DNA of 64,000 nucleotides from Promethearchaeota archaeon. GTDB lineage: Archaea; Asgardarchaeota; Lokiarchaeia; Sigyniarchaeales; SOKP01. Below are positions 33,571 through 64,000 of this stretch, piece after piece (positions within the stretch are counted from its first letter, which is position 1; each line of letters begins with the position of its first letter). Position numbers and translations under genes: made by a program. The notes below the pieces were generated by a model that saw only the letters and a program-made list of their open reading frames with translations, had not been told where the DNA came from and did no database searches. The stretch spans positions 928,001-992,000 of the forward strand of contig JAHPZA010000006.1 in the NCBI GenBank assembly GCA_019058445.1. The letters are read 5' to 3'.

Positions 33571-35109
33571 ATGAGCACTGGAAATTGTAAGAATATGACC
33601 AAAAGAATAAATCCTATAATTGTGGGCATATCACAATATACACAACCAAAGGATATTCCTCAACCGCTGGATCCTCTTCGTTTAATTTTAAAGACCAGTA
33701 AAAAAGCTCTTGATGATGCAGGAGCAGACAAATTAAAAGATTTTATCGATTCAATATATATGATTAATATTAACAGCTGGTCCTATGAAGATGCTCCTGG
33801 TGAACTTAGTAATATCATTCGCATAAAACCTGTTCAAAAGGTCTTCTTACCTGATGGTGGGGATTCCCCTCAAATGCTAGTCAATCGAGCTGCTAAAGCT
33901 ATAGCCACTGGAAAAAGTCAGGCAGTACTGATTACTGGGGGAGAGGCCTCATATTCGATTTATCGCGCTAGGAAGGGTGAAATCACACTGAATTGGCCAG
34001 AAAAAAAGACTCCAAAATATATGGAAGATAATTTGTGGAATGGTACAAGTGATTTTGAAAATAAATATGGAATGATTTTCCCTTCATGTTCATATGCTTT
34101 ATTTGAATCAACTATACGTGGAGAATCAGGCAGAAGCCTTGAAGAACATCGAGTCTACATGGGCAAGCTTTTTGAACGTTATTCTAAAATTGCCTCTAAA
34201 AATCCGTATGCTTGGAGTCAAAAATCTTATACTGTTGATGAGATCACAATCCCAAGTCCACAGAATCGCAAAGTCATCTATCCTTACACCAAACGCATGT
34301 GTTCAAATTTGTTTGTGGATCAATCAGGTGCTCTGATAATTACAAGCGAAGAAATTGCTAAAAAACTTAAAATTGATCCTACAAGTTGGGTTTATTTAAT
34401 GGGAGGTGCGGACTTTAAAAATATATTTAATATTTCTCAACGTCCGAAGCTGTTTGATTCACCTGCAGCAAGGAAAGGATCGAAACGTGCATTAGAACAA
34501 GCAGGCCTTTCACTTGGAGATATAGATGTATTTGACATATATAGTTGCTTTCCTTCTATAGTACAAATTATTACAAATGAAATGGATCTTTCTGTTGATG
34601 ATCCCCGTGATCTTACAATAACTGGGGGGCTTCCTTATTTCGGAGGCCCTTGGAGTAATTATTCACTTCACGCAATAATTACCGCAGTCGATATTATTCG
34701 TAAAAATCGCTCTAAAAAAATAATGGTTGTAGCAAATGGAGGATACAATACGAAGCAATCATTTGGAATATATGGTAATCAACCTCCAGTTATACCATGG
34801 GAAGAACGTGATGATACAGAAATTCAAAAAGAGATTCTAAGGGAAGCATTACCAGATCCAGTGAAAGAAGCAAATGGACAGATAACAATAGAAGCTTATA
34901 CAATCTATTATGAGCGAGATGGAAGACCAAAACGAGGTATTGTTATAGGATATTTAGAAGATGGAAGTCGTACATTCGCTAGAATTGAAGATAAACCTGA
35001 GAGATTAGAAGAGTTAGAACATCAAAACCTTCTTGGAAGAACTTTTCATGTTCATTTTGATAAAGAGAGCGAAGTTAATTTAATATCGTTAAATGAAGAA
35101 TTGAATTAA
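33571..35109 (+). CDS. thiolase-like protein (TLP1 / acetyl-CoA acetyltransferase-like) with extra C-terminal domain
   Basis: P.IVG..Q, GGDSPQ, GGEA, YPYTK, VDQ, DIYSCFP, TITGGLPYFGGP.SNY, ANGG, IEAYTI.Y. Confidence 0.8.
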   Translation: MSTGNCKNMTKRINPIIVGISQYTQPKDIPQPLDPLRLILKTSKKALDDAGADKLKDFIDSIYMININSWSYEDAPGELSNIIRIKPVQKVFLPDGGDSPQMLVNRAAKAIATGKSQAVLITGGEASYSIYRARKGEITLNWPEKKTPKYMEDNLWNGTSDFENKYGMIFPSCSYALFESTIRGESGRSLEEHRVYMGKLFERYSKIASKNPYAWSQKSYTVDEITIPSPQNRKVIYPYTKRMCSNLFVDQSGALIITSEEIAKKLKIDPTSWVYLMGGADFKNIFNISQRPKLFDSPAARKGSKRALEQAGLSLGDIDVFDIYSCFPSIVQIITNEMDLSVDDPRDLTITGGLPYFGGPWSNYSLHAIITAVDIIRKNRSKKIMVVANGGYNTKQSFGIYGNQPPVIPWEERDDTEIQKEILREALPDPVKEANGQITIEAYTIYYERDGRPKRGIVIGYLEDGSRTFARIEDKPERLEELEHQNLLGRTFHVHFDKESEVNLISLNEELN

Positions 35110-35135
35110 ACATAAGATAAAATAAGACCACAGCT

Positions 35136-36410
35136 ATGTTTTCTAAAGATAGTACTGACCGATATACTGCTGATTTTAATATTATGATAAAAATAGCTAT
35201 TTTAACTAGCTTAGGATTCTTTTTTATGGGATTTTTAATTCCCATTATAAGTAGGCAAAACATGAATGCCACGGGCTTAGAAATTGGATTAATTATTTCT
35301 GCAATGGTTATTGGTTTTACATTAAGTAGCTCATTCGTCGGAGTTCTTACTGATCGAACAAAATCAAAGCGTCTTCTCATATTCATAGGCTCAATGGGAC
35401 GGGGCATTTCCTACGTAATTTTTTATATCAGCATCATTATAAACGTCTTAATAGGTATGTGGGTAGGAATGTTTATATTAGGTTTTTTTGCTGGATTTTT
35501 TTGGATACCTTTTGATACTCTTATTGCAGAGAAATCTAATAAGAATAACCGTTCTCAAGCTTTTGGAAAGAGAGATTCGGCAAATGCCATAGGACAGGTA
35601 ATTGGAGGATTAATCGGATTTGGGATCTTACTTACTGTGGGAATATTTACTGACAATCCGTTTTATTTATATAGTGCCATTCTAATATTTGGTAGCGCAA
35701 ATTTTATAGCAGGAATCTTATTTATGAGGTATGTGGACGAATCTATTAAATTTTACGATGATAATGTGGTGTCAAATGAAAATGAAGATGATAAGATAGA
35801 TTCGTCTATATTTAAATTTCCCAAACCTATGATAGTTGGTTTACTTGTTCTTTTTAGCGTAGTTCTCATGGCTAGTATTAACGGAAATTTAGCGAAGCCT
35901 TTTTTAAATATTTATATCATCGAAAATCTTAGTGATAATTTGTACATTGTCATTCTTATCTATTTACCATCTGGTTTATTAGCCACATTTCTCGCTCCAA
36001 AATTAGGAGAAATTGTTGATAAACTTGAACCTAGAATTGCAATTGTTATGCTAAGTTTGTCTGGAGCGATTGTGACATGGTTCTTAATAAACACTCAAAA
36101 TCTTGTTTTATTTACTATTCTTTTATTAATAGATATCACGATTGCTATTTCTTCTGGGTTATTATTTCGAAATCTTTTGAGCAGAATAACTATAGAACAC
36201 CGCGGAAAGATTTTAGGGATTTGTTCATTTTTTGCAAATGTTGGATCTATTATTGGTCCTATTTTAGGAGGGTTTGTATGGGATATATCTGGACCAAAAG
36301 CCCCATTTATAGTTTCGATATTTGTTGAATTATGTTTGATCCCGCTTTACTTTATTGTAGTTCATTTGTTATTACCTCACGTGGCTGAAACATATGAAAA
36401 AGATGAGTAA
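35136..36410 (+). CDS. MFS transporter
   Basis: 12 TM; G.LTDR..KR motif A and G.IVDK; IGPILGG. Confidence 0.85.
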   Translation: MFSKDSTDRYTADFNIMIKIAILTSLGFFFMGFLIPIISRQNMNATGLEIGLIISAMVIGFTLSSSFVGVLTDRTKSKRLLIFIGSMGRGISYVIFYISIIINVLIGMWVGMFILGFFAGFFWIPFDTLIAEKSNKNNRSQAFGKRDSANAIGQVIGGLIGFGILLTVGIFTDNPFYLYSAILIFGSANFIAGILFMRYVDESIKFYDDNVVSNENEDDKIDSSIFKFPKPMIVGLLVLFSVVLMASINGNLAKPFLNIYIIENLSDNLYIVILIYLPSGLLATFLAPKLGEIVDKLEPRIAIVMLSLSGAIVTWFLINTQNLVLFTILLLIDITIAISSGLLFRNLLSRITIEHRGKILGICSFFANVGSIIGPILGGFVWDISGPKAPFIVSIFVELCLIPLYFIVVHLLLPHVAETYEKDE

Positions 36411-36485
36411 AAACTGATCCTAGATTGCTTAAGCAATGACGTTTTTGTCAAATCGAAATGGATTTAAAATTTTTAATATTTCTAT

Positions 36486-37997
36486 GTGACAATGAAAATT
36501 AAATCTTGTCCCATAATTGTTGGGGTAGCCCAATACACCCAGCCTAAAGACATATCACAGCCACTTGACCCGCTTAATCTAATGGTTAACACATGCCAAA
36601 AGGCTTTTTTTGACACAGGAAATGTGGAAATAAAGAATAATATTGATACATTGTACATGGTAAACATTAATAGCTGGTCTTATAAAGATGCCCCCAGTGA
36701 ACTCAGTAACATCCTTGGTATAAATCCGGGGCAAAAAGTTTATTTACCAGATGGTGGGGATTCACCTCAGATGCTAGTCAATAGAGGTGCTAAAGCTATT
36801 GCGTCTGGAAGAAGTAAAGCTATTCTTATAACAGGCGGAGAAGCTGCCTATTCAGTTTATCGTGAAAGAAAAAAAAAAATAAGATTAAATTGGCCAAGGA
36901 AAAAAACCCATAAATATATAGAAAAGAATTCGCAGCCTTATACATCTGGATTTGAAAACAAATATGGGATGATTTATCCTTCTTGTACATATGCTATGTT
37001 TGAAACAGCTGTACGTGCAGCATCGGGGAGAAGTCTTGAACAACAAAGGGAGTATATTGGTAAATTATTTGAGCATTATTCTAAAATAGCTTCAAAAAAT
37101 CCTTATGCGTGGAGCCAAAAATCCTATACAGCTCAAGAAATTTGTACTCCCTCTCCAAAGAATCGTAATATAATGTATCCTTACACCAAACATATGTGTT
37201 CAAATATATTTGTTGATCAGTCAGCCTCATTGATAATGACGAGTGAAAAAATAGCCGAGGAACTAAATATTGATCCTAAACGCAGGGTTTACCCTATGGG
37301 GGGTGCTGATTTAAAAAATATCTTAAGTATTATTAGTCGTCCAAACCTCTACGATTCTCCCGCAGCCAGAGAAGGGTCACGACTCGCATTAAAGCAAGCG
37401 GGTCTTACAGTTGAAGATATTGATGCTTTTGACATCTATAATTGCTTTCCTTCCATGGTACAAATAATTATGAATGAAATTGGTCTTTCTGTCGATGATC
37501 CTCGTGATCTTACGATAACAGGAGGGCTTCCTTACTTTGGTGGACCCCTTAGCAATTATTCAATGCATGCTATAATTGATAGTGTTAATTTAATCCGTAA
37601 AGATCCCGCTAAAAAAATTATGGTGGTAGCCAATGGAGGATATAACACTAAACAATCCTTTGGAATTTATGGGACTCAACCACCTGTGATACCTTGGGAT
37701 GAACGAAATGATTTAGAAATACAGCAGTCTATTTTTTCGAAATCTGTACCGGAGCCGATTGAGGTAGCAAATAGTCAAATTACAATTGAAGCATACACGA
37801 TTTATTATGACCGAAATGGAATGCCAAAACGAGTAATTGTATGTGGGCATCTAGAAAATGGTCGTCGAACACTTGCTATAATTGAAGAGGCACCGGAGTT
37901 ATTGGAAAACTTGGAAAACCAGGAACTTGTTGGAAAAGTATTCCCCGTTCATCATGATTCCAATGAGGATTTTAATTTCATTTCCATTAAGGATTAA
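36486..37997 (+). CDS. thiolase-like protein (TLP1-type), paralog of 33571
   Basis: Same motifs (GGDSPQ, DIYNCFP, GGLPYFGGP); highly similar to 33571. Confidence 0.8.
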   Translation: MTMKIKSCPIIVGVAQYTQPKDISQPLDPLNLMVNTCQKAFFDTGNVEIKNNIDTLYMVNINSWSYKDAPSELSNILGINPGQKVYLPDGGDSPQMLVNRGAKAIASGRSKAILITGGEAAYSVYRERKKKIRLNWPRKKTHKYIEKNSQPYTSGFENKYGMIYPSCTYAMFETAVRAASGRSLEQQREYIGKLFEHYSKIASKNPYAWSQKSYTAQEICTPSPKNRNIMYPYTKHMCSNIFVDQSASLIMTSEKIAEELNIDPKRRVYPMGGADLKNILSIISRPNLYDSPAAREGSRLALKQAGLTVEDIDAFDIYNCFPSMVQIIMNEIGLSVDDPRDLTITGGLPYFGGPLSNYSMHAIIDSVNLIRKDPAKKIMVVANGGYNTKQSFGIYGTQPPVIPWDERNDLEIQQSIFSKSVPEPIEVANSQITIEAYTIYYDRNGMPKRVIVCGHLENGRRTLAIIEEAPELLENLENQELVGKVFPVHHDSNEDFNFISIKD

Positions 37998-38771
37998 TTA
38001 ATCATTGTGAATCTCTAATGTGTCTAAGTCATCCGGAATAACAATTTCCTTATTAAATATTTCTTTTAAGTTTTTTATAGATTTTACCACCTTCTTCGCA
38101 AAGAGCGGGTAAAGGTGAACTAAGACCAATTTTTGACTGTTAGCGTCTCTAGCCATTTTTACTGCATCAGTGGGAGTGCTATGTCCATATTCATCTGCAA
38201 ATTTACTATATTTATCTGGCAATGTTGATTCACATATAAAAACTTCACAGTTTTCTGCTAATTTAACTAAATGCGGGATAGGTCTTGTATCTCCAGAGTA
38301 ACAAACAGAGTTATTATTTTTTTCTATACGATAAGCAAAGGCAATTATAGCATGATCCATCTTGGCGCTTTTTATTGTATAATCTCCTTTAAATTCTTGA
38401 ATCTCATTTGTATCATGTAACTCATTAAAGCGAATATTGAAATTAAATGCGCCAAATCCACCGGGAACGTTTAGTAAGGTAAATATTTTTTCAGTAGTAG
38501 CTTTTGTGTGGGGAGGACCAATAATTGTCAAGTCTTTGGTTCTATTACTGAGCCAGTAATGCCAGAGTAAGGAAAATAATCCCGAGAAATGATCTCCATG
38601 TAAATGTGTTATACAGATTATATTAATTGTATCTATTGCTTTTAATCGCAATAATTTCTGAGTACAGCCCTCACCGCAATCAAGAAAAAGATCGTTATTT
38701 ATTAAAAGTGAGGGAAAAGTTCGGTTCTCCGTCATGAGACTACCTGTTGTTCCTAAGAAAGTGATTTTCAT
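37998..38771 (-). CDS. RNase Z / ElaC-AtsA family metallo-beta-lactamase fold hydrolase
   Basis: LGT.G, DCGEG, THLHGDH, YSGDT.P, HST, LVH. It lacks an obvious long tRNA-binding exosite. Confidence 0.8.
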   Translation of the reverse strand: MKITFLGTTGSLMTENRTFPSLLINNDLFLDCGEGCTQKLLRLKAIDTINIICITHLHGDHFSGLFSLLWHYWLSNRTKDLTIIGPPHTKATTEKIFTLLNVPGGFGAFNFNIRFNELHDTNEIQEFKGDYTIKSAKMDHAIIAFAYRIEKNNNSVCYSGDTRPIPHLVKLAENCEVFICESTLPDKYSKFADEYGHSTPTDAVKMARDANSQKLVLVHLYPLFAKKVVKSIKNLKEIFNKEIVIPDDLDTLEIHND

Positions 38772-38833
38772 CTTAAATACCTATTAATTTACTTTAGACT
38801 ATTAAATATTATTTAGTATATAAGAAATTGGAA

Positions 38834-40363
38834 TTATGCTCGAGCCTGTCTTCTAGGAGTACGATCTTGAAGTTTTATAAGTTCATGAAGTAATTTACTT
38901 ATTAATTTATTTTTCAATTCCCTTGAATTTTTATCGTCCCATAAATTATGTTGTTCCTGTGGATCGTTCTTTAAATTGTATAAATCTCCTGCATCTTCCC
39001 GGATATTATAAACAGTAATTCTATAGTCTCCAGTTATCATGGTACGGACTTTCATTGAAGGTAGATTTAATGAATCTTTAGCATCTTCAAAATCTTGATC
39101 CTCTTCAATAATACAATGATCTCTTACTTGTACTGAAGGATCTCTTAAAATAGGGGATAAATCATATCCTTGCATAACAGGTGGATAATCTTTAGCTTTA
39201 ATATTTAATAATTTCAGAATTGTTGAGGGAATATCAATTGAACTGGCAAGAGAATTAGTTATCGTGCCAGGCTTAGTTAAACTGGGTACTTTCCATATAA
39301 ATGGCACTTTTAAAACCCCCTGGAAATGAGCCAGAGCTTTGAGAATAATTCCATGATCGGCCATAAAGTCGCCATGATCGCTTGTGAAAATTATCATTGT
39401 GTTATTCCCCAATCCAAAAGAATTTAATGCGGCTAATATTTGGCCTACACCATGGTCAATCATGGAAATTGTTCCGTATGTATATGCTATAAATTTTCTT
39501 GCTTCTTCTTCAGTTGTTTCCCGCATCGTTGTTCTTCTATACACATTTACATACTTTCCTAAAGCTTTATGGTTATAAAGAGGTTTTATGTCATTAAATG
39601 TTAATGGTAATTTGATTTTTTCAGGATTATACATAGTTTTATATTTTCCAGGTGGACAAACCGGATGATGGGGATCTGGAAATGAACAGTGCAAGAAAAA
39701 GGGTTTTTTTCCATAATAACCCTCTGAAAATCTTTTTAGAAATAAAATTATTTCCTCTGTTATATAATTTGTATGATATATTTCTTCTGGTATTGGTGAC
39801 TCATCAAGCACTTCATGGAAAAGTCTAGGTGCTCTATGCTTAATTAATTCAAAATATTCAGGTGCTCTTTCCTCAACCCAATCCAGATAATGACCTGAAA
39901 CCGCATCTCCATGGCCAATGGTTAGCATAACTTCATCTAATCCATGATAGGGGTGAGGGATGGGCTTTCTTTTATCTTTAGGTTTGTATAAAAATGGGAT
40001 CATTTGTTCCGCTGAATTAAATTTTCTGCTAAAAGGAGTTCCATAAAAATTCAAATGAATTTTTCCAATAGAACAGGTATGATACCCATTATCGAGCAAA
40101 GTTTTTGTAAATGTAGGGATATCAGAATCTAAATTTATTCCATTACATCTAACCCCATGAATGCTTGGATATTTTCCTGTAAATATAGTGGATCTATTCG
40201 GCATGCAGATTGGGTTTGCGACATAAGCATTTGTAAATCTAACTCCCTCAGCAGCAAGGCGATCCAAATTTGGAGTTTTCAGATCAGGATTTCCAGCACA
40301 ACCAAGATGATCAGCACGTTGCTGATCTGTAATTATGAACAAAACATTCATTTTTTCACTCAT
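38834..40363 (-). CDS. sulfatase superfamily hydrolase (Cys-type, CMPNR)
   Basis: TDQQR, TPNLD.LA, CMPNRSTIFTG, GKIH, DPHHP, TSDHG. Start is ATG 40363 or GTG 40375. Confidence 0.9.
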   Translation of the reverse strand: MSEKMNVLFIITDQQRADHLGCAGNPDLKTPNLDRLAAEGVRFTNAYVANPICMPNRSTIFTGKYPSIHGVRCNGINLDSDIPTFTKTLLDNGYHTCSIGKIHLNFYGTPFSRKFNSAEQMIPFLYKPKDKRKPIPHPYHGLDEVMLTIGHGDAVSGHYLDWVEERAPEYFELIKHRAPRLFHEVLDESPIPEEIYHTNYITEEIILFLKRFSEGYYGKKPFFLHCSFPDPHHPVCPPGKYKTMYNPEKIKLPLTFNDIKPLYNHKALGKYVNVYRRTTMRETTEEEARKFIAYTYGTISMIDHGVGQILAALNSFGLGNNTMIIFTSDHGDFMADHGIILKALAHFQGVLKVPFIWKVPSLTKPGTITNSLASSIDIPSTILKLLNIKAKDYPPVMQGYDLSPILRDPSVQVRDHCIIEEDQDFEDAKDSLNLPSMKVRTMITGDYRITVYNIREDAGDLYNLKNDPQEQHNLWDDKNSRELKNKLISKLLHELIKLQDRTPRRQARA

Positions 40364-40487
40364 AACTTCTATCACATAATAATTAATCTATAATAAAAAC
40401 TACCAAATATGTCAGAAGTGATTAATAGTTCTTACTAGATAGTTTTATATATAATGTTAACCCAAATGTAAAAAAGTAATTAAACAA

Positions 40488-41903
40488 TTGCATTTAAAGA
40501 TATTTAATATGGTAAATTCAGAAAAAGAAATTACACACTCGAAGGCTGTTATGGCTTCGTATGGTATGGGAGCAGCAATAAATCAATTCTTTAGAATGGC
40601 ATTTGTCGCGTTCGGTTTCTATTTTTATGAAGGGGAAATAGGCTTAGACGTTTGGATAACCGCACTAGGATACATTTTATTTGCGATATGGAATGCAGTT
40701 AACGACCCTCTAGTAGGCTATTTAACTAATCGACCTTTTAAATTCACTAAAAAATGGGGTAGAAGGTTTCCTTGGACCATGATCGGAGGAATTCCTTGGG
40801 TTCTTACATATATTCTTGTTTTTACTCCACCTGCTGTTGATCCGGTAGCAGGGGCATGGATTCTTTTTGGATGGCTTGTGTTTTCCACATGTTTGTTTGA
40901 CACATTTAATTCTATTTGGTGGGTAAATTATTATTCTCTTTTTCCTGATAAATTTCGTTCACTAAAGGAGCGTAGGACTGCTACCGGAATCGTGACTCCC
41001 ATAGGAATTGTCGGAATAACCCTTGGAGGGATAGTACCACCTCTACTTATTACTTATGGTGTTCCCACTACTTTTATTATTCAAGCTGGAGTTGTTTCTA
41101 TAATCGCATTTATTATGCTGATGCTTGGGATCCCCGGTTGGCGCGATGATCCCGATTCTGTTGAGAAATATCTCGAAAAATATGAAAAGGAGAAAGAAGA
41201 AGAATCCTTCTTTAAATCTATGATATCTACATTCCACCAAAGATCATGGGTTCTTTTGTTGATTATATATTTAACGTGGCAAGTATTAACGTTTTGCGTT
41301 CAAGCTTCGATTCCCTATCTTATGCGATTTGTTCTAAAAATGCAAGCTAGTGCCCAATTATTCTTACAAGTTGGATTTCTCATAGGTGCCATCATTTCAA
41401 TCCCCCTTTGGGTTAAATTAGCAAACAAACTAAATGATAATAAAAAAGTTTATGTAATTGCGGGTTTAATATTAGTTGTTTTCTCGATTCCGCTCTCATT
41501 ATTTGCTAATTATAACATCCTTATTCTATTATTTATTTTATGGGGTGTAGGACTTGGGGGATTTTGGGCATTAAATCGAATAATTTTAAGTGATGTGGTG
41601 GATGAAGCAGTGGTGAATACTGGGAAACGGGAAGAGGGAATATACAGTGGGATATTCATGTTTTTTAATCGTGTGGCTATAATTATTCAAGTAGTTATAT
41701 TTGCTACTGTACATACCATGACAGGATTCGTAGAAGGTGCAGATAGTCAATCAACTCAAGCTCAATGGGGTATCCAATTACACCTTGGAATTATTCCAGC
41801 AATAGTACTTCTCTTTGGTACATTACTTTTCTGGAAATTTTATGATTTAACACCTAGTAGGATAGAAGACGTACAAAGTAAATTAAAACAAATGGGCCTC
41901 TAA
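40488..41903 (+). CDS. GPH (glycoside-pentoside-hexuronide) family MFS transporter
   Basis: WNAVNDPL.G, WGRRFPW, DVVDE..TGKREEG.Y. Confidence 0.85.
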   Translation: MHLKIFNMVNSEKEITHSKAVMASYGMGAAINQFFRMAFVAFGFYFYEGEIGLDVWITALGYILFAIWNAVNDPLVGYLTNRPFKFTKKWGRRFPWTMIGGIPWVLTYILVFTPPAVDPVAGAWILFGWLVFSTCLFDTFNSIWWVNYYSLFPDKFRSLKERRTATGIVTPIGIVGITLGGIVPPLLITYGVPTTFIIQAGVVSIIAFIMLMLGIPGWRDDPDSVEKYLEKYEKEKEEESFFKSMISTFHQRSWVLLLIIYLTWQVLTFCVQASIPYLMRFVLKMQASAQLFLQVGFLIGAIISIPLWVKLANKLNDNKKVYVIAGLILVVFSIPLSLFANYNILILLFILWGVGLGGFWALNRIILSDVVDEAVVNTGKREEGIYSGIFMFFNRVAIIIQVVIFATVHTMTGFVEGADSQSTQAQWGIQLHLGIIPAIVLLFGTLLFWKFYDLTPSRIEDVQSKLKQMGL

Positions 41904-41945
41904 ATTAATTTAACAAAATTTAAAAAAAATTCCTTTTTTTTTAGT

Positions 41946-50415: not shown

Positions 50416-50426
50416 GAAAGCATTAT

Positions 50427-55098: not shown

Positions 55099-56622
55099 TT
55101 ATAAGATTCCATCCCAAGCAGATCGCTCGTCATCTAAAGGTCCATTGACCACTTTAATCTCTTTGCCGAATAGCATTGTTGATCTCTTCTCAAGACTATA
55201 AGAGGGCCACTCAGGGATGCTTTTGTGGTTTGGATTTCCTGTGCGGGCAAAAAAAGTCCATGAATCCATCATTTTAGTGCTTATTGCTTCAGTCTCTTCA
55301 CTTTTACTTGGAAAAATACCTATAGCTTTTTCACTTAGCAATCCAAAAACAAAAGGTAACTCGATGGCATGGATTGCTCCTTGTATTCCCCCTGGCATTT
55401 TTAGCTTCCAGTTAAATAAATACATATAAGTATTCGGTTGGAGGTCGCTTTGTACTTCCGCTAAACGTATTGAAGGAATACGGAACGCAAAATCAGTCAG
55501 ATACGCATCGACAATATCTTGAGGCTCTATTGGTTCCTTACCTTTTCTTGCTTGCTGATAAGTTTTAATCATTTGCTCTGCTTTATCCTCATCTTGACCA
55601 AGAGCCTTCATTAAATTAATTGTACTCTTAAGTAATTTACTTTCATCAACTTTAGGTGCGTTAGGATTCAATGCGGTCCAAAGTTTTATCTCATCTTGAT
55701 TCGTTCCTATAAGAAGCTCAATCTCCTTAGCAGAACCATTACGCATGGCCGTAAGAGGATGTTCTGGCAAGGTTTTTTCATCAATAACAGGCCCTACCGT
55801 CGGAGCATCCGATGCAAAGGTTGAACCACTTTGGATCGCTTTATTAGTTGGATCGGCTTTAATAAGTTCATCAATAGTAACCTTACGGAGTGCATCAATA
55901 TCACCCTCCTTAATCTTTAGTTTAGATTGTACCTGATCAGAAGCTTCTTTACGTCTTAAATTGTGATAAAACATAGGATGGCACGCACCACTTTGGGCTA
56001 TAACGCGATGAAAAAGTCCTTTCGCAGAAGGCATAGCCATTAGGGTACAAACGGAAACACTACCCGCAGATTCGCCAAAAATTGTGACATTCTTAGGATC
56101 ACCCCCAAAAGCTTCAATGTTCTCTTTAACCCATTTAAGAGCCGCTATTTGATCGAGCAACCCTACATTAGCCGTTTTGCCCGGTATATAAAAAAATCCC
56201 AGAACTCCTAAACGATAATTTAATGATACGATCACCACATTTCCTCTGAGTGCTAAACGCGCACCATCCAGATCAGCACCACTTCCTGTCACAAACGCGC
56301 CACCATGTACCCATACCATCACTGGGAGGTTTTTTTGATCTGTCTCGGGACTCCAAACATTTACAGTTAAGCAATCAGCCTCACTTTGTTTAGCTTTCCC
56401 TCCAAACATTGCCAAAAGAACAGAGGGAGGTTGAGGGGCAATAGGACCGAATTCTGTGGCATCTAGTACCTCATCCCATGGCTGTCTAGGTGCGGGCGGA
56501 CTAAAACGAAGCTCTCCGACAGGCGAAGCAGCATAGGGTATCCCCTTAAATTTAAAGACCCCTCTCGCCCTATAACCCCGAACTTTACCTAAATTTGTGT
56601 CAACTATAATATTCTTTTCCAT
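55099..56622 (-). CDS. type-B carboxylesterase/lipase (PnbA-like)
   Basis: GIPYA..P.G.LRF, EADCL.VNVW, HGG, GESAG nucleophile elbow, HAIELPFVFG. Confidence 0.9.
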   Translation of the reverse strand: MEKNIIVDTNLGKVRGYRARGVFKFKGIPYAASPVGELRFSPPAPRQPWDEVLDATEFGPIAPQPPSVLLAMFGGKAKQSEADCLTVNVWSPETDQKNLPVMVWVHGGAFVTGSGADLDGARLALRGNVVIVSLNYRLGVLGFFYIPGKTANVGLLDQIAALKWVKENIEAFGGDPKNVTIFGESAGSVSVCTLMAMPSAKGLFHRVIAQSGACHPMFYHNLRRKEASDQVQSKLKIKEGDIDALRKVTIDELIKADPTNKAIQSGSTFASDAPTVGPVIDEKTLPEHPLTAMRNGSAKEIELLIGTNQDEIKLWTALNPNAPKVDESKLLKSTINLMKALGQDEDKAEQMIKTYQQARKGKEPIEPQDIVDAYLTDFAFRIPSIRLAEVQSDLQPNTYMYLFNWKLKMPGGIQGAIHAIELPFVFGLLSEKAIGIFPSKSEETEAISTKMMDSWTFFARTGNPNHKSIPEWPSYSLEKRSTMLFGKEIKVVNGPLDDERSAWDGIL

Positions 56623-56822: not shown

Positions 56823-57575
56823 ATGGTTTCATTAATCAAACTTATTCAAACAGGAAAACTCCCTCTAAATCAGTTCATGGATTTAGAAACTGTTAATTGG
56901 ATAAAAGATCATAGACCCTCATTTAATTTCAGCCCTCCTCCAATTGATTTTGAACCTAACCTTGACGAGTATCTGATGGAGTTAAAGAATTATATCCCTG
57001 ATCCTAATTGGTTTTTAGTTTCAAAAAAAAGGGATTCAATCCATGGTATGAGACACATATTAAGAGTGGTCTTTCATTCAATAATACTTACCTTGCTGAG
57101 TGAGGATAAAACTTCCCGGTTTTTTAAAAATTGTTTGGTTGCCTCTTCTTTACATGATTTAAGACGTAAAAATGACTTAATGGATTTATTTCACGGAAAA
57201 AGAGCAGCAAGGTGGTTTAAAAAAAACATTTTTCTCATAGAAAAGCAATTTGAAATTCATTTATCCGAAGACGATATTAAAGCTATTTATTATTCGATGT
57301 CATTTCATGATTTACCCTATGAAAAAATAGTAAAGCACATAAAATATGAAAAATATAAAGACCTAACGGATATTCTTAAAACCGCAGATGCTTTGGACAG
57401 ATATAGATTGCCGAGTGTTCGATTGTGGTTTAAAGACAGTTATGTTTATGTGATCCCCTCTGACTATTTAAAGTGTATGGCATTTCAATTAGTAATTACC
57501 AGTGAGACCAAATTTTTGAACGGTGTTACGAATGTCAATAGTGTAATAAATGCCATTGAAGAATTTTTTAAATAG
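56823..57575 (+). CDS. HD-domain protein
   Basis: HGMRH..RV, LHDLRR, HG..AA, FHD, ADALDR. Confidence 0.7.
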   Translation: MVSLIKLIQTGKLPLNQFMDLETVNWIKDHRPSFNFSPPPIDFEPNLDEYLMELKNYIPDPNWFLVSKKRDSIHGMRHILRVVFHSIILTLLSEDKTSRFFKNCLVASSLHDLRRKNDLMDLFHGKRAARWFKKNIFLIEKQFEIHLSEDDIKAIYYSMSFHDLPYEKIVKHIKYEKYKDLTDILKTADALDRYRLPSVRLWFKDSYVYVIPSDYLKCMAFQLVITSETKFLNGVTNVNSVINAIEEFFK

Positions 57576-57651: not shown

Positions 57652-59490
57652 TTAGAATTTATATTGCCCACTAATTATATTGTCGCTTATATCATTTGTC
57701 AATGGGATATATTCTGATTTACCTGGCAACAAAACGTATAAAGGATCATCAATTTTCTTAAGATCAAAAGCTTCGTTCTTCAACTTCATTTTTTTAAATT
57801 TAAAAGTTGCTGTAACTGAAAGTTTTGATTTAAACCTGAGGAAAATTGGGATCGCATAAGCGGGAAGATTTTGTCTAAATATCTTCATAAACTCTTTTAA
57901 ATTAAAATCTTCGAGAGATGTGTTCGGTACTATTGCGGCCATTCCAGCTCGGCCATCAGTAGCTGGTATATGAACACCATAGACGGTTGAAAATAACACT
58001 TGTTCGAAGCTGTTAATTACTTTTTCTATTTCGATAGTGGACACATTATTCCCTTTCCATCGATATGTATCTCCCAGACGATCAACAAACTGAGCGTGAT
58101 TGTTTCCTAAATCTCTAATCAAATCTCCAGTATTAAACCATTCGTCTCCTTCATTAAAGACATCATGAAATAACTTAGCATCAGTAGCTTCTTTATCTGT
58201 ATATCCCCTAAAAGTTGACACTCCCGTATTTTCAAATAGTAATAATCCGGATTCACCAACATTAACCCTCTCCATAAATCCTGCTTCATTTCTGAAGGGT
58301 TTTTCTTCATCATAGTCATATTTCACTATGGCAAATGAAGTTATACAACACCCGATCGTACAATCAAAATTTAAAATATTCCCAAACGCTCCAACAGCCT
58401 CGCTTGCTGAGTAATATTCTCCGATTTTTTCAATGTTAAATCGATCTTTAAAGTCTTTCCATATCTCATTGCGGAGTCCTGGTCCAATAACTACTCTTAC
58501 AGAATTATCTGAGTCCTTATCTCTGGGAGGCTGATTCATGAGATATCGGCACACTTCTCCGATGTAATTAAAAGCAGTAGCTTTATATTTTTGTATCTCA
58601 TCCCAGAAATTGCTCACACTAAATTTACGACCAATAGCAATTGTCGCGCCACTCCCTAAAGCGGCAGCACATCCTGCTCCAATCGCATTAGCATGAAATA
58701 ATGGTAATGAAATATACATAATATCCTCAGGTGTTAAGTCTCCAAGACCTCTTCCATAAAAATAATAACTGCTTATTAGCGTATAATGACGCATTATTGT
58801 AGCTTTGGGAAATCCCGTAGTACCTGAGGTAAATAAGTAAGCAATATCATCAGTCGTCTTAACTAAAGATGTGGTTGATGGATTGTTTTTAGGAAAATCT
58901 TTAACAGCTAACGAAAGATCGATATATCCTTCTGGAAGAGAGAGGATGCCTTGATCAGGTAAAAAAAAAAGGGTTTGATCATTTGAAAGGTCTAGGTCTG
59001 ATATTACAGCATTGAAATTATTAAAACAATTTTCATCTATGATGATAAATTTTCTGGGAGTAAGTTTTAGACAATGCACTAGGGACATTTCGCGTAGATC
59101 AATATTGATCAATGAACCTATTGCTCCAATTTTACCAAGAGCATAAAGAATCATTACATATTCAGGTCGATTAGTCATCATTATTTGTACCACATCCCCT
59201 TTATTCAACCCTAAAGAAATAAAATAATGTGCATATCGGTTAATCCATTCATTAAATTCTTTAAAGTTTAATGTTGTATCTTCAAATTTTATAGCAATAT
59301 TGTCAGCATACTTTCCTGCATTTCTTTCTATAATAGTTCCCCAAGAAACTTTATTTTCTGAAGGGATATTCATGAATTCTTGGAATTCATCACTATGCTT
59401 GCCAACCCAGCTACGATAACGTTTCCTATATTCTCTTTTATCAATCAGATCCATATCTTTTGGTTCAGCTATTTCTCCCATCCTTAACAC
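57652..59490 (-). CDS. long-chain acyl-CoA synthetase, FATP/SLC27-FadD6 type
   Basis: YLFTSGTTGFPKA, YIGEVCRYL, FVDRLGDTYRWKG.NVST.E FATP signature. Confidence 0.9.
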   Translation of the reverse strand: MLRMGEIAEPKDMDLIDKREYRKRYRSWVGKHSDEFQEFMNIPSENKVSWGTIIERNAGKYADNIAIKFEDTTLNFKEFNEWINRYAHYFISLGLNKGDVVQIMMTNRPEYVMILYALGKIGAIGSLINIDLREMSLVHCLKLTPRKFIIIDENCFNNFNAVISDLDLSNDQTLFFLPDQGILSLPEGYIDLSLAVKDFPKNNPSTTSLVKTTDDIAYLFTSGTTGFPKATIMRHYTLISSYYFYGRGLGDLTPEDIMYISLPLFHANAIGAGCAAALGSGATIAIGRKFSVSNFWDEIQKYKATAFNYIGEVCRYLMNQPPRDKDSDNSVRVVIGPGLRNEIWKDFKDRFNIEKIGEYYSASEAVGAFGNILNFDCTIGCCITSFAIVKYDYDEEKPFRNEAGFMERVNVGESGLLLFENTGVSTFRGYTDKEATDAKLFHDVFNEGDEWFNTGDLIRDLGNNHAQFVDRLGDTYRWKGNNVSTIEIEKVINSFEQVLFSTVYGVHIPATDGRAGMAAIVPNTSLEDFNLKEFMKIFRQNLPAYAIPIFLRFKSKLSVTATFKFKKMKLKNEAFDLKKIDDPLYVLLPGKSEYIPLTNDISDNIISGQYKF

Positions 59491-59639: not shown

Positions 59640-61463
59640 TTAAAATTCATATTTTTGTAAATTATTGCAGATATCTCTATTTAAGGGTGTATATTCTGAA
59701 CTCCCTGGTAACAACACATACATAGGATCTTCAACGGTTTCAATATCAAAGCACTCTTTTTTTAGCTGGACTTTTTTAAGCTTAAAGGTTGCCGTAGTTG
59801 CCAATTTTGATTTAAATCTAAGGAAGATGGGAACACCATAAGGAGGAAGATTTTTCTTTAGATGTTCAGCCAGTCCTTTTAAATCAAATTCTTCAAGCGA
59901 AACACTAGGTAATATTGCCGCCATACCAACCCGCCCATCAGTATCGGGTATCTGAACACCATAGACGCTTGAAAATAACACTTGATCGAAAGTATTGATA
60001 ACTTGTTCTACTTCTGTGGTGGATATATTATGTCCTTTCCAACGAAATGTATCTCCAAGGCGATCTACAAATTGAGCATGGGTATGACCAATATCTCTCA
60101 TTAAGTCCCCCGTATTAAACCAGATATCTCCTTTTTTAAATACATCATGAAAAATTTTCTCATCAGTTGCCTTTTTATCAGTATATCCTCTAAATACCAT
60201 TGTACTTGTAATCTCAAATAATAATAATCCGGATTCACCAAGGTTAACTCTTTCCATAAAACCTTCCTCATTCTTGATAGGCTTTTCGGTATCTGGATCG
60301 AATTTAACAATAGCATAAGGAAAAAAGGTCATACCTACCGTATTGTCAAAATTCAAAACATTGAAAAATCCTCCAACACTTTCAGTAGCATTGTAATATT
60401 CTCCAATTTTTTCGATGTTAAATCGAGTTTTAAAATCTTTCCAAATTTCATAGCGAAGTCCCGGTCCAATGACCACTCTTACTGAATTATCGGCATCATC
60501 TGGTTTTGGGGGTTGATTCATCAGATATCTACATATCTCACCGATGTAATTAAAGCCAGTAGCGTTATATTTACGAATTTCATCCCAAAAACGACTTATA
60601 CTGAATTTTCGTCCAATAGCTACCGCTGCGCCCCCACCAAATGCGGATGCACATCCGGGTCCTAAAGAATTTGAATGAAATAACGGAAGGGGAACATACA
60701 AAGTATCTTCGGGTGTAAACTCTGCTATTATCTGTCCAAATAAAAGATAACAAGCCACCATTGTATAATTGGCAAACCGCGTAGCTTTGGGAAACCCTGT
60801 AGTACCTGAAGTGAATATATAAGCAATAATATCAGAAGTTTTGATGTCGTATGTGGTCGAGGGATTGTCCACGGGAAAATTTATTACCTCCTTGGAAAGA
60901 TCAATGAAATCTCCAGGAATTGAGATTAAACCTTGGTCCGGCAAGAAATAGAGTTTTTGGTCTTTTGATAAGTCTAAATCGGATTTTACAGCATTGAAGC
61001 TCTCATAACAGTTTTCACCAACAATAATAAGCTTTCCAGGGGTGAGTTCTAAACAATGTGCCAGGGACATTTCGCGCATATCGATATTGATTAGAGACGC
61101 TATTACCCCAGTTTTACCAGCAGCTGTTAAGATCATTAAATATTCAGGTCGATTGGTCATCATCAGCTCAATTACATCCCCTTTTTTTAGGCCCAAAGAG
61201 AGTATAAAATGGGCGTATCGATTTACCCATTCATTGAATTCTTTATAAGTAAGTGTTATGTCTTCGAATATGATAGCAGTCTTATCAGCATATGTTTCTG
61301 CGTTTTCTTCAACAAGTTGGCCCCAAGAAACTTTGTTCTCCTCAACAGTAGCGTTTAATTTTGCGATATCACTTCCATGTTTTCTGATAAACCTCATATT
61401 TCTTTTTCGAAACTCTCTAGTAGGAATCAGATCAGATTCTTTTGACTCATCCTTTTCTATCAA
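59640..61463 (-). CDS. long-chain acyl-CoA synthetase, FATP type
   Basis: YIFTSGTTGFPKA, FVDRLGDTFRWKGHNISTTEVE. Confidence 0.9.
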   Translation of the reverse strand: MIEKDESKESDLIPTREFRKRNMRFIRKHGSDIAKLNATVEENKVSWGQLVEENAETYADKTAIIFEDITLTYKEFNEWVNRYAHFILSLGLKKGDVIELMMTNRPEYLMILTAAGKTGVIASLINIDMREMSLAHCLELTPGKLIIVGENCYESFNAVKSDLDLSKDQKLYFLPDQGLISIPGDFIDLSKEVINFPVDNPSTTYDIKTSDIIAYIFTSGTTGFPKATRFANYTMVACYLLFGQIIAEFTPEDTLYVPLPLFHSNSLGPGCASAFGGGAAVAIGRKFSISRFWDEIRKYNATGFNYIGEICRYLMNQPPKPDDADNSVRVVIGPGLRYEIWKDFKTRFNIEKIGEYYNATESVGGFFNVLNFDNTVGMTFFPYAIVKFDPDTEKPIKNEEGFMERVNLGESGLLLFEITSTMVFRGYTDKKATDEKIFHDVFKKGDIWFNTGDLMRDIGHTHAQFVDRLGDTFRWKGHNISTTEVEQVINTFDQVLFSSVYGVQIPDTDGRVGMAAILPSVSLEEFDLKGLAEHLKKNLPPYGVPIFLRFKSKLATTATFKLKKVQLKKECFDIETVEDPMYVLLPGSSEYTPLNRDICNNLQKYEF

Positions 61464-61716: not shown

Positions 61717-63555
61717 TTAAAATACGTATTTTTGATTTAGTATATTTTCATAAATATTCTTTTTCAAGGGCGTAAAACCTGATTCACCCGGCAACATTAC
61801 ATACATCGGATCGTCAATATTCTCAAAATTGAAGCCTTCCTTTTTCAATTGTACTTTTTTAAGTTTAAAAGTGGCTGTGATTGCCAATTTCGATTTAAAC
61901 CTAAGGAAAATTGGAATTCCATAAGAAGGGAGGTTTTTTTTAAGATGATCAGTCAGTCCTTTTAGATCAAAATCTTCAATTGAAACGGTTGGCACTATGG
62001 ATGCCATTCCTGCTCTTCCTTCAGTTCTTGGTATTTTCACACCATAGGCAGTTGAAAACAATACTTGATCGAAGCTATTAATTATTTTCTCAACTTCAGT
62101 GGTGGAAATGTTGTGTCCCTTCCAGCGAAATGTATCTCCGAGGCGATCAACAAATTGGGCATGGTTATTTCCAATATCCCTCATTAAGTCCCCCGTATTA
62201 AACCATGTATCTCCTTTTTTAAAGACATTACGAAATATTTTCGCTTCGGTTGCATTTTTATCCGTATATCCCCGAAAATAAGACGTCCCTGTTATCTCGA
62301 AAAGTAATAATCCAGATTCACCAAGTTCAACCCTTTGCATAAATCCATCATCATTTAGGATAAGTTTTTCTTCTTCATGATTGTATTGAACAATAGCATA
62401 AGGTGCAATACAAGCACCTACAGTACAATCAAAATTCAACATATTAGCAAATGCCGCAACAGCTTCGGTTGCAGAGTAGTATTCTCCAATTTTTTCGATA
62501 TTAAATCGCTCTTTAAAATCTTTCCAGATTTCATGACGTAGTCCTGCACCGATGACAACTCGCACGTTATTTTCTACATCATCAGGTTTGGGAGGTTGAT
62601 TCATCAAGTATCTGCATACTTCTCCAATATAATTAAAAGCTGTTGCATTATATTTGCGGATCTCATCCCAGAATCGGCTCACACTGAATTTTCGTCCTAT
62701 AGCTAAAGATGCGCCACCTCCAAAGGCAGATCCACAACCTGCTCCTTGAGAATTCGAATGAAAGAGTGGAAGTGAAACGTACATTGTATCATTAGGGGTT
62801 AATTCGGCTATTACTTGCCCAAACGCGTAATAACAAGCAACCATAGTAGAATGAGCAAATTTAACTGCTTTCGGAAACCCCGTAGTGCCTGAAGTAAAAA
62901 TATAAGTAATAGTATCAGAAGTTTTTACGTCTTTTGTAGTTGAAGGATTGTCTATAGGAAAACTTTTAACTTCTTGGGAAAGATCAATAAAACCTTCTGG
63001 TGTAGGGATCAACCCTTGGTCAGGAAAGAAACAAAGAAGTTGATGTTCTGAGAGGTCAATATCTGATTTCACTTTACTAAATGTATCAAAACAGTTTTCA
63101 TCAACTATAATAATTTTTCCGGGAGTAAGTTTTAAACAATGGGCCAGGGACATTTCGCGCAGATCAATATTAATTAAAGAAGTAATTGCCCCAATTTTAC
63201 CAACAGCATATACAATCATTAGATATTCCGGTCGATTTGTCATCATTAATTCCACTACGTCCCCTTTTTTCAAGCCTAAAGAGAGAAAATAATGGGCATA
63301 ACGGTTAACCCATTCATTAAACTCTTTATAAGTCAGCGTAATATCCTCAAATTTGATAGCGATATTATCAGAATATATTTCTGCATTAGTCTCAACAAGT
63401 TCGCCCCATGAAACCTTATTTTCCTCGAGTTTTTTTGTATATTCGACTAAAGCATTAGCATGCTTTCTCATAAATCTCATATTTCTTTTTCTATATTCCC
63501 TATTAGGAATAAGATCTTGTTCTTTCAACTCAGTCTCTTCTAACATTATAGCCAC
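61717..63555 (-). CDS. long-chain acyl-CoA synthetase, FATP type
   Basis: YIFTSGTTGFPKA, FVDRLGDTFRWKGHNISTTEVE. Confidence 0.9.
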   Translation of the reverse strand: MAIMLEETELKEQDLIPNREYRKRNMRFMRKHANALVEYTKKLEENKVSWGELVETNAEIYSDNIAIKFEDITLTYKEFNEWVNRYAHYFLSLGLKKGDVVELMMTNRPEYLMIVYAVGKIGAITSLINIDLREMSLAHCLKLTPGKIIIVDENCFDTFSKVKSDIDLSEHQLLCFFPDQGLIPTPEGFIDLSQEVKSFPIDNPSTTKDVKTSDTITYIFTSGTTGFPKAVKFAHSTMVACYYAFGQVIAELTPNDTMYVSLPLFHSNSQGAGCGSAFGGGASLAIGRKFSVSRFWDEIRKYNATAFNYIGEVCRYLMNQPPKPDDVENNVRVVIGAGLRHEIWKDFKERFNIEKIGEYYSATEAVAAFANMLNFDCTVGACIAPYAIVQYNHEEEKLILNDDGFMQRVELGESGLLLFEITGTSYFRGYTDKNATEAKIFRNVFKKGDTWFNTGDLMRDIGNNHAQFVDRLGDTFRWKGHNISTTEVEKIINSFDQVLFSTAYGVKIPRTEGRAGMASIVPTVSIEDFDLKGLTDHLKKNLPSYGIPIFLRFKSKLAITATFKLKKVQLKKEGFNFENIDDPMYVMLPGESGFTPLKKNIYENILNQKYVF

Positions 63556-63769
63556 ACCATTCTTTTTTATTCTTAAAATAAAATGTCTGTTAAGATTTCG
63601 TTTTTAAAAAAATTTTATTAGAACTAATATGTTTTTTTGCAATTATAAATCTTACATTCCAAAATATTTCAAATACTCAGATCTTTGGTGGAAAATAGTT
63701 AGAAGTGGTAATATTCTTAGAAAAAACTAAAATTAATAAAATAAAAATTGATATTTTTTGGTAGAATAA

Positions 63770-64000
63770 TTACTTAAGAAAATCGATAATAATTTTATTC
63801 ACTCTTTCTGGTTCTGGTGAAAATAGATCATGTCCAAGATTATCGAATAATTCTAATCTTGCACCAGGAATATTAGTGGCTAATGTTCCAGCATTTTTAT
63901 AGGGGATGAGAAGATCTTGCTTGCCGTGCAATACTAAGGTAGGAACACCGATTTTTTTTAGTCTCCTGCCTGCATTAAATCGTCCAGCAGCTAAAATATT
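63770..64000 (-). CDS. alpha/beta hydrolase, C-terminal fragment (truncated by window edge)
   Basis: Manual translation ...IGVPTLVLHGKQDLLIP...NIPGARLELFDNLGHDLF.PEPERVNKIIIDFLK*, with catalytic Asp and His motifs. Confidence 0.8.
   Translation of the reverse strand, partial: NILAAGRFNAGRRLKKIGVPTLVLHGKQDLLIPYKNAGTLATNIPGARLELFDNLGHDLFSPEPERVNKIIIDFLK

Follow-up and report, generated by a model that had tools for sequence, protein, structure and literature searches.

The window analysed here is a 64-kb stretch of DNA (G000:C6:928001-992000, G+C content about 32%) from an Asgard archaeon whose genome (G000) is available as a 4.6-Mb assembly of 10 contigs with a completeness of 92.6%. About 30 kb of this window had been described in a first-pass annotation as one locus directed at sulfated or phospho-ester lipids. 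We now consider this stretch as probably composite and not one locus, with a core (37998-53647) that is best read as a sulfatase island, accessory and rapidly changing, through which small sulfate esters, most probably sulfated sugars, would be imported and desulfated in the cytoplasm. The island occupies a conserved chromosomal slot between a gene for a thiolase-like protein of the TLP1 type and aroD. It holds genes for six Cys-type S1 sulfatases of at least four lineages, a Thr-type protein of the same fold, a GPH carrier, a metallo-beta-lactamase-type (MBL) hydrolase and a ribbon-helix-helix (RHH) regulator accompanied by two palindromes. A module of this kind recurs across the class, as one or more cytoplasmic S1 sulfatases joined by a secondary importer of the sugar type and, optionally, by an MBL hydrolase and a regulator; the island is an expanded version of it. 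Around the island lie the array of FATP-type synthetases, the esterase and the TLP1-MFS-TLP1 operon, which are separate neighbours in acyl-CoA metabolism. Gene calls rest on Pfam and NCBIfam profile matches with family cut-offs. The features of the island are the following:

37998-38771, minus strand: ElaC/RNase-Z-like MBL hydrolase (Lactamase_B_2, 73 bits), co-oriented with sulfatase 1 and 62 bp downstream of it
38834-40375, minus strand: sulfatase 1, group A (PF00884, 144 bits; C-M-P-N-R, TDQQR)
40488-41903, plus strand: GPH (MFS_2) cation symporter (PF13347, 204 bits, cut-off 27), divergent from sulfatase 1 across a 112-bp spacer
42161-43291, minus strand: methyl-accepting chemotaxis protein, MCP (MCPsignal, 106 bits)
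43504-45030, minus strand: sulfatase 2 (PF00884; CVPSR, CDELR), probably starting at a later Met at 44931
44978-46504, minus strand: sulfatase 3, group A (PF00884; CMPNR, TDAQR)
46557-47966, minus strand: sulfatase 4 (PF00884; CAPAR, PDQHR)
48013-49482, minus strand: sulfatase 5 (PF00884; CVPAR, PDQHR)
49584-49600: candidate RHH operator towards sulfatase 5, a palindrome (GTAATA-N5-TATCAC)
49788-49804: candidate RHH operator immediately before the RHH start, a perfect palindrome (GTAATA-N5-TATTAC)
49822-50415, plus strand: RHH regulator (RHH_3, 22 bits, barely above the cut-off), the C-terminal domain of which matches no known family
50427-51959, minus strand: sulfatase 6, group A (PF00884, 150 bits; C-M-P-N-R, TDGQR)
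52184-53647, minus strand: sulfatase-fold protein 7 (PF00884, 81 bits; Thr at the formylglycine position in S-L-P-T-L-P-V-R, LDTLR)

The sulfatase slot and its contents

PF00884 matches are widespread in the genomes sampled, i.e., G000 and 30 relatives: they occur in 28 of these 31 genomes with a maximum of 27 per genome. G000 has 27 matches, of which 24 are full-length sulfatase-family genes distributed over 15 loci. Seven of these 24 genes are packed into 15 kb of the 4.6-Mb genome, far beyond what is expected by chance. Among the congeners, which were used for synteny, the contents of the slot vary and comprise seven, at least five, two or two sulfatases, or a GH20 hexosaminidase without a sulfatase. 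The closest relative, the metagenome-assembled genome (MAG) ABR15 (G002, 71% complete), is near-collinear with the window. One of its contigs carries TLP1a-MFS-TLP1b-MBL-sulfatase 1 and another one sulfatase 1-GPH-GPH-sulfatases 2-3-4-5, with two GPH genes at the GPH position, no gene for an MCP and a collinear four-sulfatase run that shares 80-94% protein identity with that of G000. G003 contains TLP1a-MFS-TLP1b and then TLP1b-MBL-two sulfatases-ATC hydrolase-aroD-COesterase, and the adjacency of MBL and sulfatase genes is thus retained in both G002 and G003. In G008, the order LLM-TLP1-MFS-sulfatase 3-TetR-DUF4405-sulfatase 7 was found, with ATC hydrolase-aroD-DUF362-like-FATP on a different contig. 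G009 and G006 are represented by long contigs with the order aroK-...-TLP1-GH20-aroD, including aroE in G009 and a GH57 gene beside TLP1 in G006; neither has a sulfatase, esterase or FATP gene in the slot. The GH20 beta-hexosaminidase of G009 (L007:8935-10464) is confirmed by Pfam, and in G006 an open reading frame (ORF) of the same size (L008:9513-11042) occupies the slot. As the flanks are collinear with or without sulfatases, aroD goes with aroE and aroK, TLP1 belongs to the backbone and the sulfatases fill a variable slot. Flanking repeats that could mark the boundaries of a mobile element were not present, and all direct repeats between 30 and 64 kb of the window stem from coding similarity between paralogs. 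The MCP gene was rejected as a component of the system, because it is absent from G002, has 14 paralogs in G000 and is not enriched near sulfatases. It is a variable passenger.

The RHH gene is present in a single copy in G000. Its orthologs in G011 and G002 (43-53% identity) are divergent from a sulfatase-3-like gene and have a GPH-like gene as neighbour. In G002, the three genes GPH-RHH-sulfatase (L017 on C148, a contig of 6.3 kb) are inserted between the genes for E1-beta and FMN reductase, which are direct neighbours in the window (3511-5210). This indicates that the GPH-RHH-sulfatase unit is portable. An integrase was not seen in the 6.3-kb contig. Palindromes were searched in the 64-kb window and in 105 fetched loci. 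The sequence GTRATA-N5-TATYAC occurs at only two sites in the window, both within the spacer between the genes for RHH and sulfatase 5. In the 105 loci, further exact matches are confined to the G002 module, where they precede GPH and lie between the RHH and sulfatase genes, and to one unrelated site. None of the TLP1, esterase or FATP genes in the window is preceded by the palindrome. The RHH protein may therefore be pictured as controlling at least the four-sulfatase run and its own gene.

All seven sulfatase-fold proteins match PF00884 with 81-164 bits (cut-off 25), and sulfatases 5-4-3-2 are encoded in a four-gene run (43504-49482, minus strand; 138-164 bits) with spacers of 46-52 bp. The first-pass annotation had counted seven sulfatase-family genes. 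This holds with regard to the fold, while the alignment finds the formylglycine motif C-x-P-x-R in six of them and TLPVR in the seventh. The single Asp in x-D-x-x-R, which had also been pointed out, is present in all seven. D17, D333, H334 and H236 (sulfatase 1 numbering), which include the S-D-H-G metal ligands, are invariant. The G-K-x-H segment is missing in protein 7 and its His is missing in sulfatase 4. In sulfatase 6, Gln takes the place of the Lys that follows the DHG motif in paralogs 1 and 3. In none of the seven is there an N-terminal extension suitable as a signal peptide, and the catalytic Asp is located at residue 13-17. The longest ORF for sulfatase 2 does include a 33-aa extension, which lacks hydrophobic character and runs into the upstream gene. 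These features agree with the cytoplasmic action proposed earlier.

Sulfatases 1, 3 and 6 (group A) are mutually 52-64% identical and, judged by this measure, only these three are recent paralogs. The remaining four share 23-32% identity with sulfatase 1, and the array thus appears as an assembly of lineages and not as the product of one tandem burst. The nearest solved relatives were taken from a ranking of PDB chains by score. For sulfatases 1 and 3 the best match is 4UPI (180 and 169 bits), together with 4UPL (SpAS1/SpAS2), and a GlcNAc-6-sulfatase is the second-ranked solved relative of sulfatase 3. Sulfatase 2 is nearest to 6HHM, which was deposited as 'Arylsulfatase', sulfatase 4 is weakly related to 2QZU and 6FNY, sulfatase 5 is nearest to the exo-2S-iota-carrageenan sulfatase 6PT4, and protein 7 to 6HHM/5G2V (about 80 bits). 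D-Q-x-R is common to SpAS1/2 and the YidJ-like 2QZU, while the GlcNAc-6-sulfatase 5G2V has D-D. SpAS1 and SpAS2 are dimeric arylsulfatases (AS) of the AS/PMH subgroup within the alkaline-phosphatase superfamily, where they are grouped with phosphonate monoester hydrolases (PMH) and placed beside choline sulfatase (PMC5870055). The earlier assignment of all paralogs to the choline-sulfatase/PMH branch is therefore fair for group A only, where D-Q-x-R is shared. In the six paralogs scanned (all but sulfatase 3), the models for choline sulfatase BetC (TIGR03417, 84-205 bits, cut-off 433) and PehA/PMH (NF045661, 87-180 bits, cut-off 900) stayed under their cut-offs, and sulfatases 2 and 5 have their nearest relatives elsewhere.

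The Thr of protein 7 is conserved in its orthologs from G006, G008, G009, G011 and G017 and in paralog lineages of G000, G005 and G016, which speaks for a settled subfamily and not for decay. This subfamily is characterized by the motif S-L-P-T-[LI]-P-x-R and the lack of the G-K-x-H segment and has two further members in G000. Several copies (L009, L022, L025, L046-L051) adjoin GPH/MFS carriers, Gfo/Idh/MocA dehydrogenases or a fucose-isomerase-like gene. The Thr-type proteins are probably maturation-independent phosphoesterases or transferases.

Carriers, partners and the probable substrate

Orthologs of sulfatase 3 were surveyed at 54 loci in GTDB species genomes, including flanks of up to 8 kb in both directions. 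All 54 orthologs (59-94% identity) stem from Promethearchaeota/Promethearchaeia MAGs, in full agreement with an Asgard archaeon as the source of the window. The loci contain a second sulfatase-3-like gene in 13 cases, a GPH gene in 10, an MFS_1/Sugar_tr carrier gene in 13 and a gene for an SdsA-like MBL in 20. Where a GPH or MFS_1/Sugar_tr gene is present, it usually follows directly and in the same orientation. The typical order is FMN reductase-sulfatase 3-(sulfatase 3)-MFS/GPH-SdsA-like, embedded in backbone genes for FMN reductase (24 loci), U32 peptidase (22), PCMT (17) and GH57 amylase (10). The SdsA-like proteins comprise about 430 aa with Lactamase_B and Alkyl_sulf_dimr domains (examples in L054-L105, such as L054:9549-10835). 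Where directly adjacent, their genes converge on that for the sulfatase-3 ortholog at a distance of 3-22 bp. G000 has two of them (C4:149370-150605 and C4:119168-120409), neither in the window. An S1 sulfatase and a type III (SdsA-like) sulfatase thus form a conserved pair across Promethearchaeia. A further protein of about 754 aa without a Pfam match flanks the sulfatase-3/transporter/SdsA-like module in 22 of the 54 loci (L093:12778-15042 and 42 further genes). It often occurs in tandem copies in Asgard MAGs and has no homolog in G000.

The link with carriers is also evident within G000, which encodes 66 GPH-like, 17 FATP/ACS-like, three COesterase and two TLP1 proteins. When the 15 sulfatase loci were compared with 2000 random placements at radii of 3, 6 and 10 kb, a GPH gene was found near 7, 8 and 10 loci, respectively, versus 1.7, 2.5 and 3.5 expected (p<=0.001). 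The earlier proposal of a functionally linked transporter is borne out by this enrichment together with the recurrence of carriers at the sulfatase-3 loci. For the GPH carrier of the island (40488-41903), the best NCBIfam matches were gph, MelB and glucuronide transporter, all under their cut-offs (TIGR00792, 129 versus 231 bits). By its profile matches it is a member of the superfamily without a call for subfamily specificity. About 66 GPH/MFS_2-type carriers in an archaeal genome of 4.6 Mb represent a very large expansion, which suggests import of many different glycosides. Other loci in G000 that combine sulfatase and GPH genes contain Gfo/Idh/MocA dehydrogenases, a PIG-L de-N-acetylase fusion and a fucose-isomerase-like gene. 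The fusion protein (658 aa, L020:11074-13050, G000:C3:317-319 kb) joins a region resembling the N-terminus of neutral ceramidase to a PIG-L GlcNAc de-N-acetylase domain, and its gene adjoins those for a PLP enzyme, a sulfatase and three GPH carriers.

In our model, the GPH carrier would take up a small sulfate ester that other sediment microbes would have released; a sulfated mono- or oligosaccharide or glycoside is the most probable candidate. Desulfation would take place in the cytoplasm and follow the classical S1 mechanism, in which the Ca2+-bound formylglycine hydrate attacks the sulfur, and different paralogs may handle different positions or sugars. Formylglycine would be generated by the radical-SAM maturase anSME (anaerobic sulfatase-maturating enzyme), as is predicted for the relatives. 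Sulfated sugars are favoured because of the carrier type, the relationship of sulfatase 5 with a carbohydrate sulfatase, the sugar enzymes at other GPH-sulfatase loci and the GH20 gene in the slot of congeners.

Several observations weigh against this model. The island itself contains no gene for a glycoside hydrolase or for sugar catabolism. The nearest solved relatives of group A, SpAS1 and SpAS2, are arylsulfatases without a known natural substrate, and the SdsA-like MBL at 20 of the 54 sulfatase-3 loci fits non-sugar sulfate esters equally well. COesterase genes lie near two of the 15 sulfatase loci of G000 at 6 kb (p about 0.01, from three genes only), and a second locus in G000 (C3:432-450 kb) has the order MFS-COesterase-SDR-SDR-thiolase-enoyl-CoA hydratase-Fer4TrmB-sulfatase, where SDR stands for short-chain dehydrogenase/reductase. 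Furthermore, the 92.6% complete G000 assembly yielded no match for the formylglycine-generating enzyme FGE (PF03781), and the best score for anSME (TIGR03942) was 79.8 bits at a cut-off of 349.

A serious alternative, if on balance an unlikely one, is that small sulfate esters other than carbohydrates (phenolic/aryl or alkyl sulfates, choline-O-sulfate) are imported and hydrolysed for the organic moiety or the sulfate, with the GPH and MFS proteins acting as generic importers of organic anions. It is small aryl and alkyl sulfates that have to be taken seriously here, because of the resemblance of group A to SpAS and the presence of SdsA-like partners. Group A (sulfatases 1, 3 and 6) is closest to SpAS1/SpAS2 and shares D-Q-x-R with these enzymes, which have been grouped with PMH and choline sulfatase (PMC5870055). 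The best NCBIfam models for the sulfatases are those for arylsulfatase PRK13759 and choline sulfatase. The island lacks a glycoside hydrolase, and the pairing of the sulfatase-3 family with SdsA-like MBL proteins has a counterpart of sorts in the ElaC-like MBL gene that follows sulfatase 1 in the window. However, all of these NCBIfam scores are far under the equivalog cut-offs (238 of 481, at most 205 of 433 and 180 of 900 bits), and SpAS1 and SpAS2 do not hydrolyse choline sulfate (PMC5870055). The carriers are of the sugar type, for sulfatase 5 the closest structure is that of an exo-acting carbohydrate sulfatase, and sugar enzymes are present at other GPH-sulfatase loci.

Neighbouring genes of acyl-CoA metabolism

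The genes on both sides of the island and the backbone genes are listed here:

28381-29912: aroE and aroK, within the window
33571-35109, plus strand: TLP1a, thiolase-like (Pfam TLP1_add_C), left flank, outside the island
35136-36410, plus strand: MFS_1 transporter (Pfam MFS_1), between the two TLP1 genes, outside the island
36486-37997, plus strand: TLP1b, thiolase-like (Pfam TLP1_add_C), left flank, outside the island
53825-54280, plus strand: ATC-hydrolase-like (profile match), right flank backbone
54269-55015, minus strand: aroD, type I 3-dehydroquinase (profile match), right flank backbone
55099-56622, minus strand: type-B carboxylesterase (COesterase, 414 bits), outside the island
57652-59490, 59640-61463 and 61717-63555, minus strand: three FATP/FadD6-type acyl-CoA synthetases (AMP-binding; NF006134, 699, 705 and 720 bits, cut-off 625)

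The gene content given in the first-pass annotation was recovered by Pfam and NCBIfam for the sulfatases, transporters, TLP1 pair, MBL hydrolase, MCP, RHH regulator, COesterase and three FATP-type synthetases. The exception is the supposed alpha/beta hydrolase, which could not be located: the ORF at 56823-57575 (plus strand) has neither a Pfam or NCBIfam match nor a GxSxG motif, which rules out a recognizable member of that family, and it contains H..HD..D-like motifs. The FATP array extends beyond the window with three more copies (G000:C6:994868-1001639). Six tandem genes compare with 1, 1, 1, 0 and 2 FATP-type genes in five good relatives and represent a lineage-specific expansion.

The proposal of one lipid-directed locus assumes that the sulfatases strip head groups from sulfolipids, alkyl sulfates or phospholipids, that the esterase frees the acyl chains, that the FATP proteins activate them and that the thiolase-like proteins shorten them. 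We regard this as improbable. The physical adjacency in G000 speaks for it, and the main point in its favour is the second locus mentioned above, which is present in G000 and G002 and combines a sulfatase with MFS, COesterase or FATP, SDR, thiolase and enoyl-CoA hydratase genes; in the G002 counterpart an FATP gene replaces the esterase gene. In addition, an FATP gene lies directly upstream of a sulfatase gene in G009, TLP1 is divergent from GPH-sulfatase in G017, which belongs to another genus, and SdsA-like alkylsulfatases are common beside sulfatase-3 orthologs in relatives. The MFS_2 family also includes lysolipid carriers. Synteny across relatives had been suggested as a check on this proposal, and the expected linkage is not conserved: FATP-type genes occur at none of the 54 sulfatase-3 loci, and TLP1 (in G008, with MFS), COesterase (in G003) and enoyl-CoA hydratase genes at one each. 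The orthologs of the second-locus sulfatase in G008, G017, G024 and G027 have no thiolase, enoyl-CoA hydratase, FATP or esterase neighbours, and the adjacency in G009 is the only one in the five good relatives. In G000 itself, FATP genes (0, 1 and 1 loci at the three radii) and the pooled lipid set (2, 3 and 3 loci) are found near sulfatase loci at chance level (p 0.2-0.5 for lipid genes, and 0.2-1.0 with the FATP genes included). The TLP1a-MFS_1-TLP1b genes form an operon-like run (33571-37997, plus strand) that converges on the MBL gene and is not co-transcribed with the island, and the RHH palindrome is missing from the promoters of the lipid genes. Relatives keep the flanks without sulfatases, as in G006 and G009, and sulfatases without lipid genes. 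The fatty-acid genes are thus neighbours and not partners.

Sulfatase maturation and comparison with known systems

In relatives, maturation is apparently provided by anSME. It is encoded by a single-copy gene in 19 of the 30 relatives, which are all those with at least four sulfatase matches except G002; none of those with two or fewer has it. In G005 the gene (C42:540-1634; 409 bits) is directly upstream of two sulfatase-3 orthologs. In G002, as in G000, anSME was not found. G003 carries anSME on a contig whose equivalent in G000 has kept the esterase end and lacks the anSME segment. A gap in the assembly is a simpler account than true loss, since anSME tracks the number of sulfatases and the completeness of G002 is only 71%. 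Other maturase candidates were rejected. The radical-SAM gene of the window (12417-13352) lacks a SPASM domain, scores 48 bits with TIGR03942 and has orthologs that coexist with anSME in G003, G006 and G009. Of four other radical-SAM/SPASM genes in G000, three have orthologs in congeners with anSME, whereas for the fourth (C4:291609) G002 offers no ortholog but just a paralog with 32% identity. Fer4-TrmB proteins, which combine a helix-turn-helix (HTH) domain with 2x[4Fe-4S], were considered as maturase or dedicated regulator; they have about 24 paralogs and are not significantly enriched near sulfatases (p 0.07-0.18). G000 and G002 each have about 27 PF00884 matches, and the six Cys-type genes of the window are intact. 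There is a small chance that the G000/G002 lineage has truly lost anSME, has no FGE and uses an undescribed third route of maturation or enzymes that work without formylglycine.

It is highly improbable that the proteins are not working sulfatases at all, the Cys-type enzymes remaining unmodified and being inactive or weak phosphoesterases or phosphonate-ester hydrolases and the Thr-type protein a phosphoesterase: the absence of FGE and of anSME above the cut-off from the 10 contigs of G000 and from G002, the missing segment relative to G003, the conserved Thr variant and the promiscuity of AS/PMH-group enzymes (PMC5870055) would fit, but the intact catalytic motifs of six genes and 80-94% identity with G002 argue for selection on function, anSME tracks sulfatase number almost perfectly in relatives with G002 being incomplete, and none of the other radical-SAM/SPASM genes of G000 is distributed in a complementary way. 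PMH enzymes also need formylglycine.

For the sulfatase island as a system for small sulfated sugars, the closest described analogue is that of Bifidobacterium breve UCC2003, which according to the summary of Egan et al. 2016 in PMC7326374 has cytoplasmic sulfatase clusters for GlcNAc-6-sulfate, the sugar being freed by community members, imported and desulfated inside the cell. The island sulfatases are likewise predicted to be cytoplasmic. The two differ in that the island has seven multi-lineage sulfatase-fold genes instead of one, a GPH carrier, an RHH regulator with palindrome and an archaeal host, and that a maturase is present neither in the island nor, as far as detected, in the assembly. 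The B. breve cluster reportedly also encodes anSME, a transporter and a regulator.

Compared with SpAS1/SpAS2 of Silicibacter pomeroyi (4UPI/4UPL), sulfatases 1 and 3 share C-x-P-x-R, D-Q-x-R and an N-terminal region of 105 residues that aligns without gaps; the similarity is moderate, and sulfatases 2, 4, 5 and 7 are nearest to other structures. BetC (TIGR03417; 6FNY) and PMH/PehA (NF045661; 2VQR, 2W8S) have the fold, the formylglycine motif and the single-Asp motif in common with the island proteins and match every paralog significantly. In view of the low scores given above and the absence of bet genes near the island, the proteins are relatives and not members of these families. Sulfatase-rich polysaccharide utilization loci of Bacteroidota and the Planctomycetes-Verrucomicrobia-Chlamydiae (PVC) group resemble the island in the clustering of many S1 subfamilies with transport and regulation and in the use of one anSME for all, as seen in the 19 relatives. 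Bacteroidota/PVC sulfatases are mostly exported and accompanied by SusC/D proteins and glycoside hydrolases. In the island, by contrast, all sulfatases are predicted to be cytoplasmic, import would rely on a secondary carrier and no hydrolase is encoded. The type III alkylsulfatases SdsA1 and Pisa1 have their likeness in the Lactamase_B/Alkyl_sulf_dimr proteins at 20 of the 54 loci and in the two copies in G000, but these archaeal proteins of about 430 aa have no match to the C-terminal SCP2-like domain. The MBL protein of the window is ElaC/RNase-Z-like. It matches TIGR02651 (RNase Z) with 185 bits, under the cut-off of 293, in two stretches that skip profile positions 152-201, and is without the flexible-arm segment.

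A large marine pool of organic carbon and sulfur consists of sulfate esters, such as sulfated glycans of algae and animals and phenolic and alkyl sulfates, and bacteria are usually regarded as their degraders in anoxic sediment. The library of papers that was searched contained none on sulfatases of Asgard archaea. The present analysis indicates that Promethearchaeia (Lokiarchaeia) commonly carry cytoplasmic formylglycine sulfatases, one anSME, GPH or sugar-type MFS importers and a portable module under predicted RHH control. It also corrects the lipid inference, with the fatty-acid genes as neighbours only, and points to a testable scavenging niche for Asgard archaea, namely uptake of small sulfated products freed by primary degraders.

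Two further observations concern the left part of the window. A cluster at 8015-14630 contains genes for an MCP (8015-9136), a thiamine diphosphate (ThDP) enzyme (9346-11169), a TauE/SafE sulfite exporter (11505-12299), the radical-SAM protein without SPASM (12417-13352), a DUF3795 protein and an HxlR protein. The ThDP enzyme is acetolactate-synthase-like (412 bits) and matches models for Xsc, sulfoacetaldehyde acetyltransferase, with 294-313 bits, all under the cut-offs. Its position beside TauE recalls organosulfonate (sulfoacetaldehyde) breakdown. The radical-SAM protein has two paralogs with 63-67% identity at G000:C3:482-489 kb. The gene at 2312-3433 belongs to the Fer4-TrmB family, proteins of about 370 aa in which a weak TrmB-like HTH at the N-terminus is combined with a ferredoxin domain for the two [4Fe-4S] clusters at the C-terminus. 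Copies are located beside sulfatase genes at G000:C4:152-155 kb, C3:443 kb and C6:279 kb, and the proteins are possibly redox-sensing sugar regulators.

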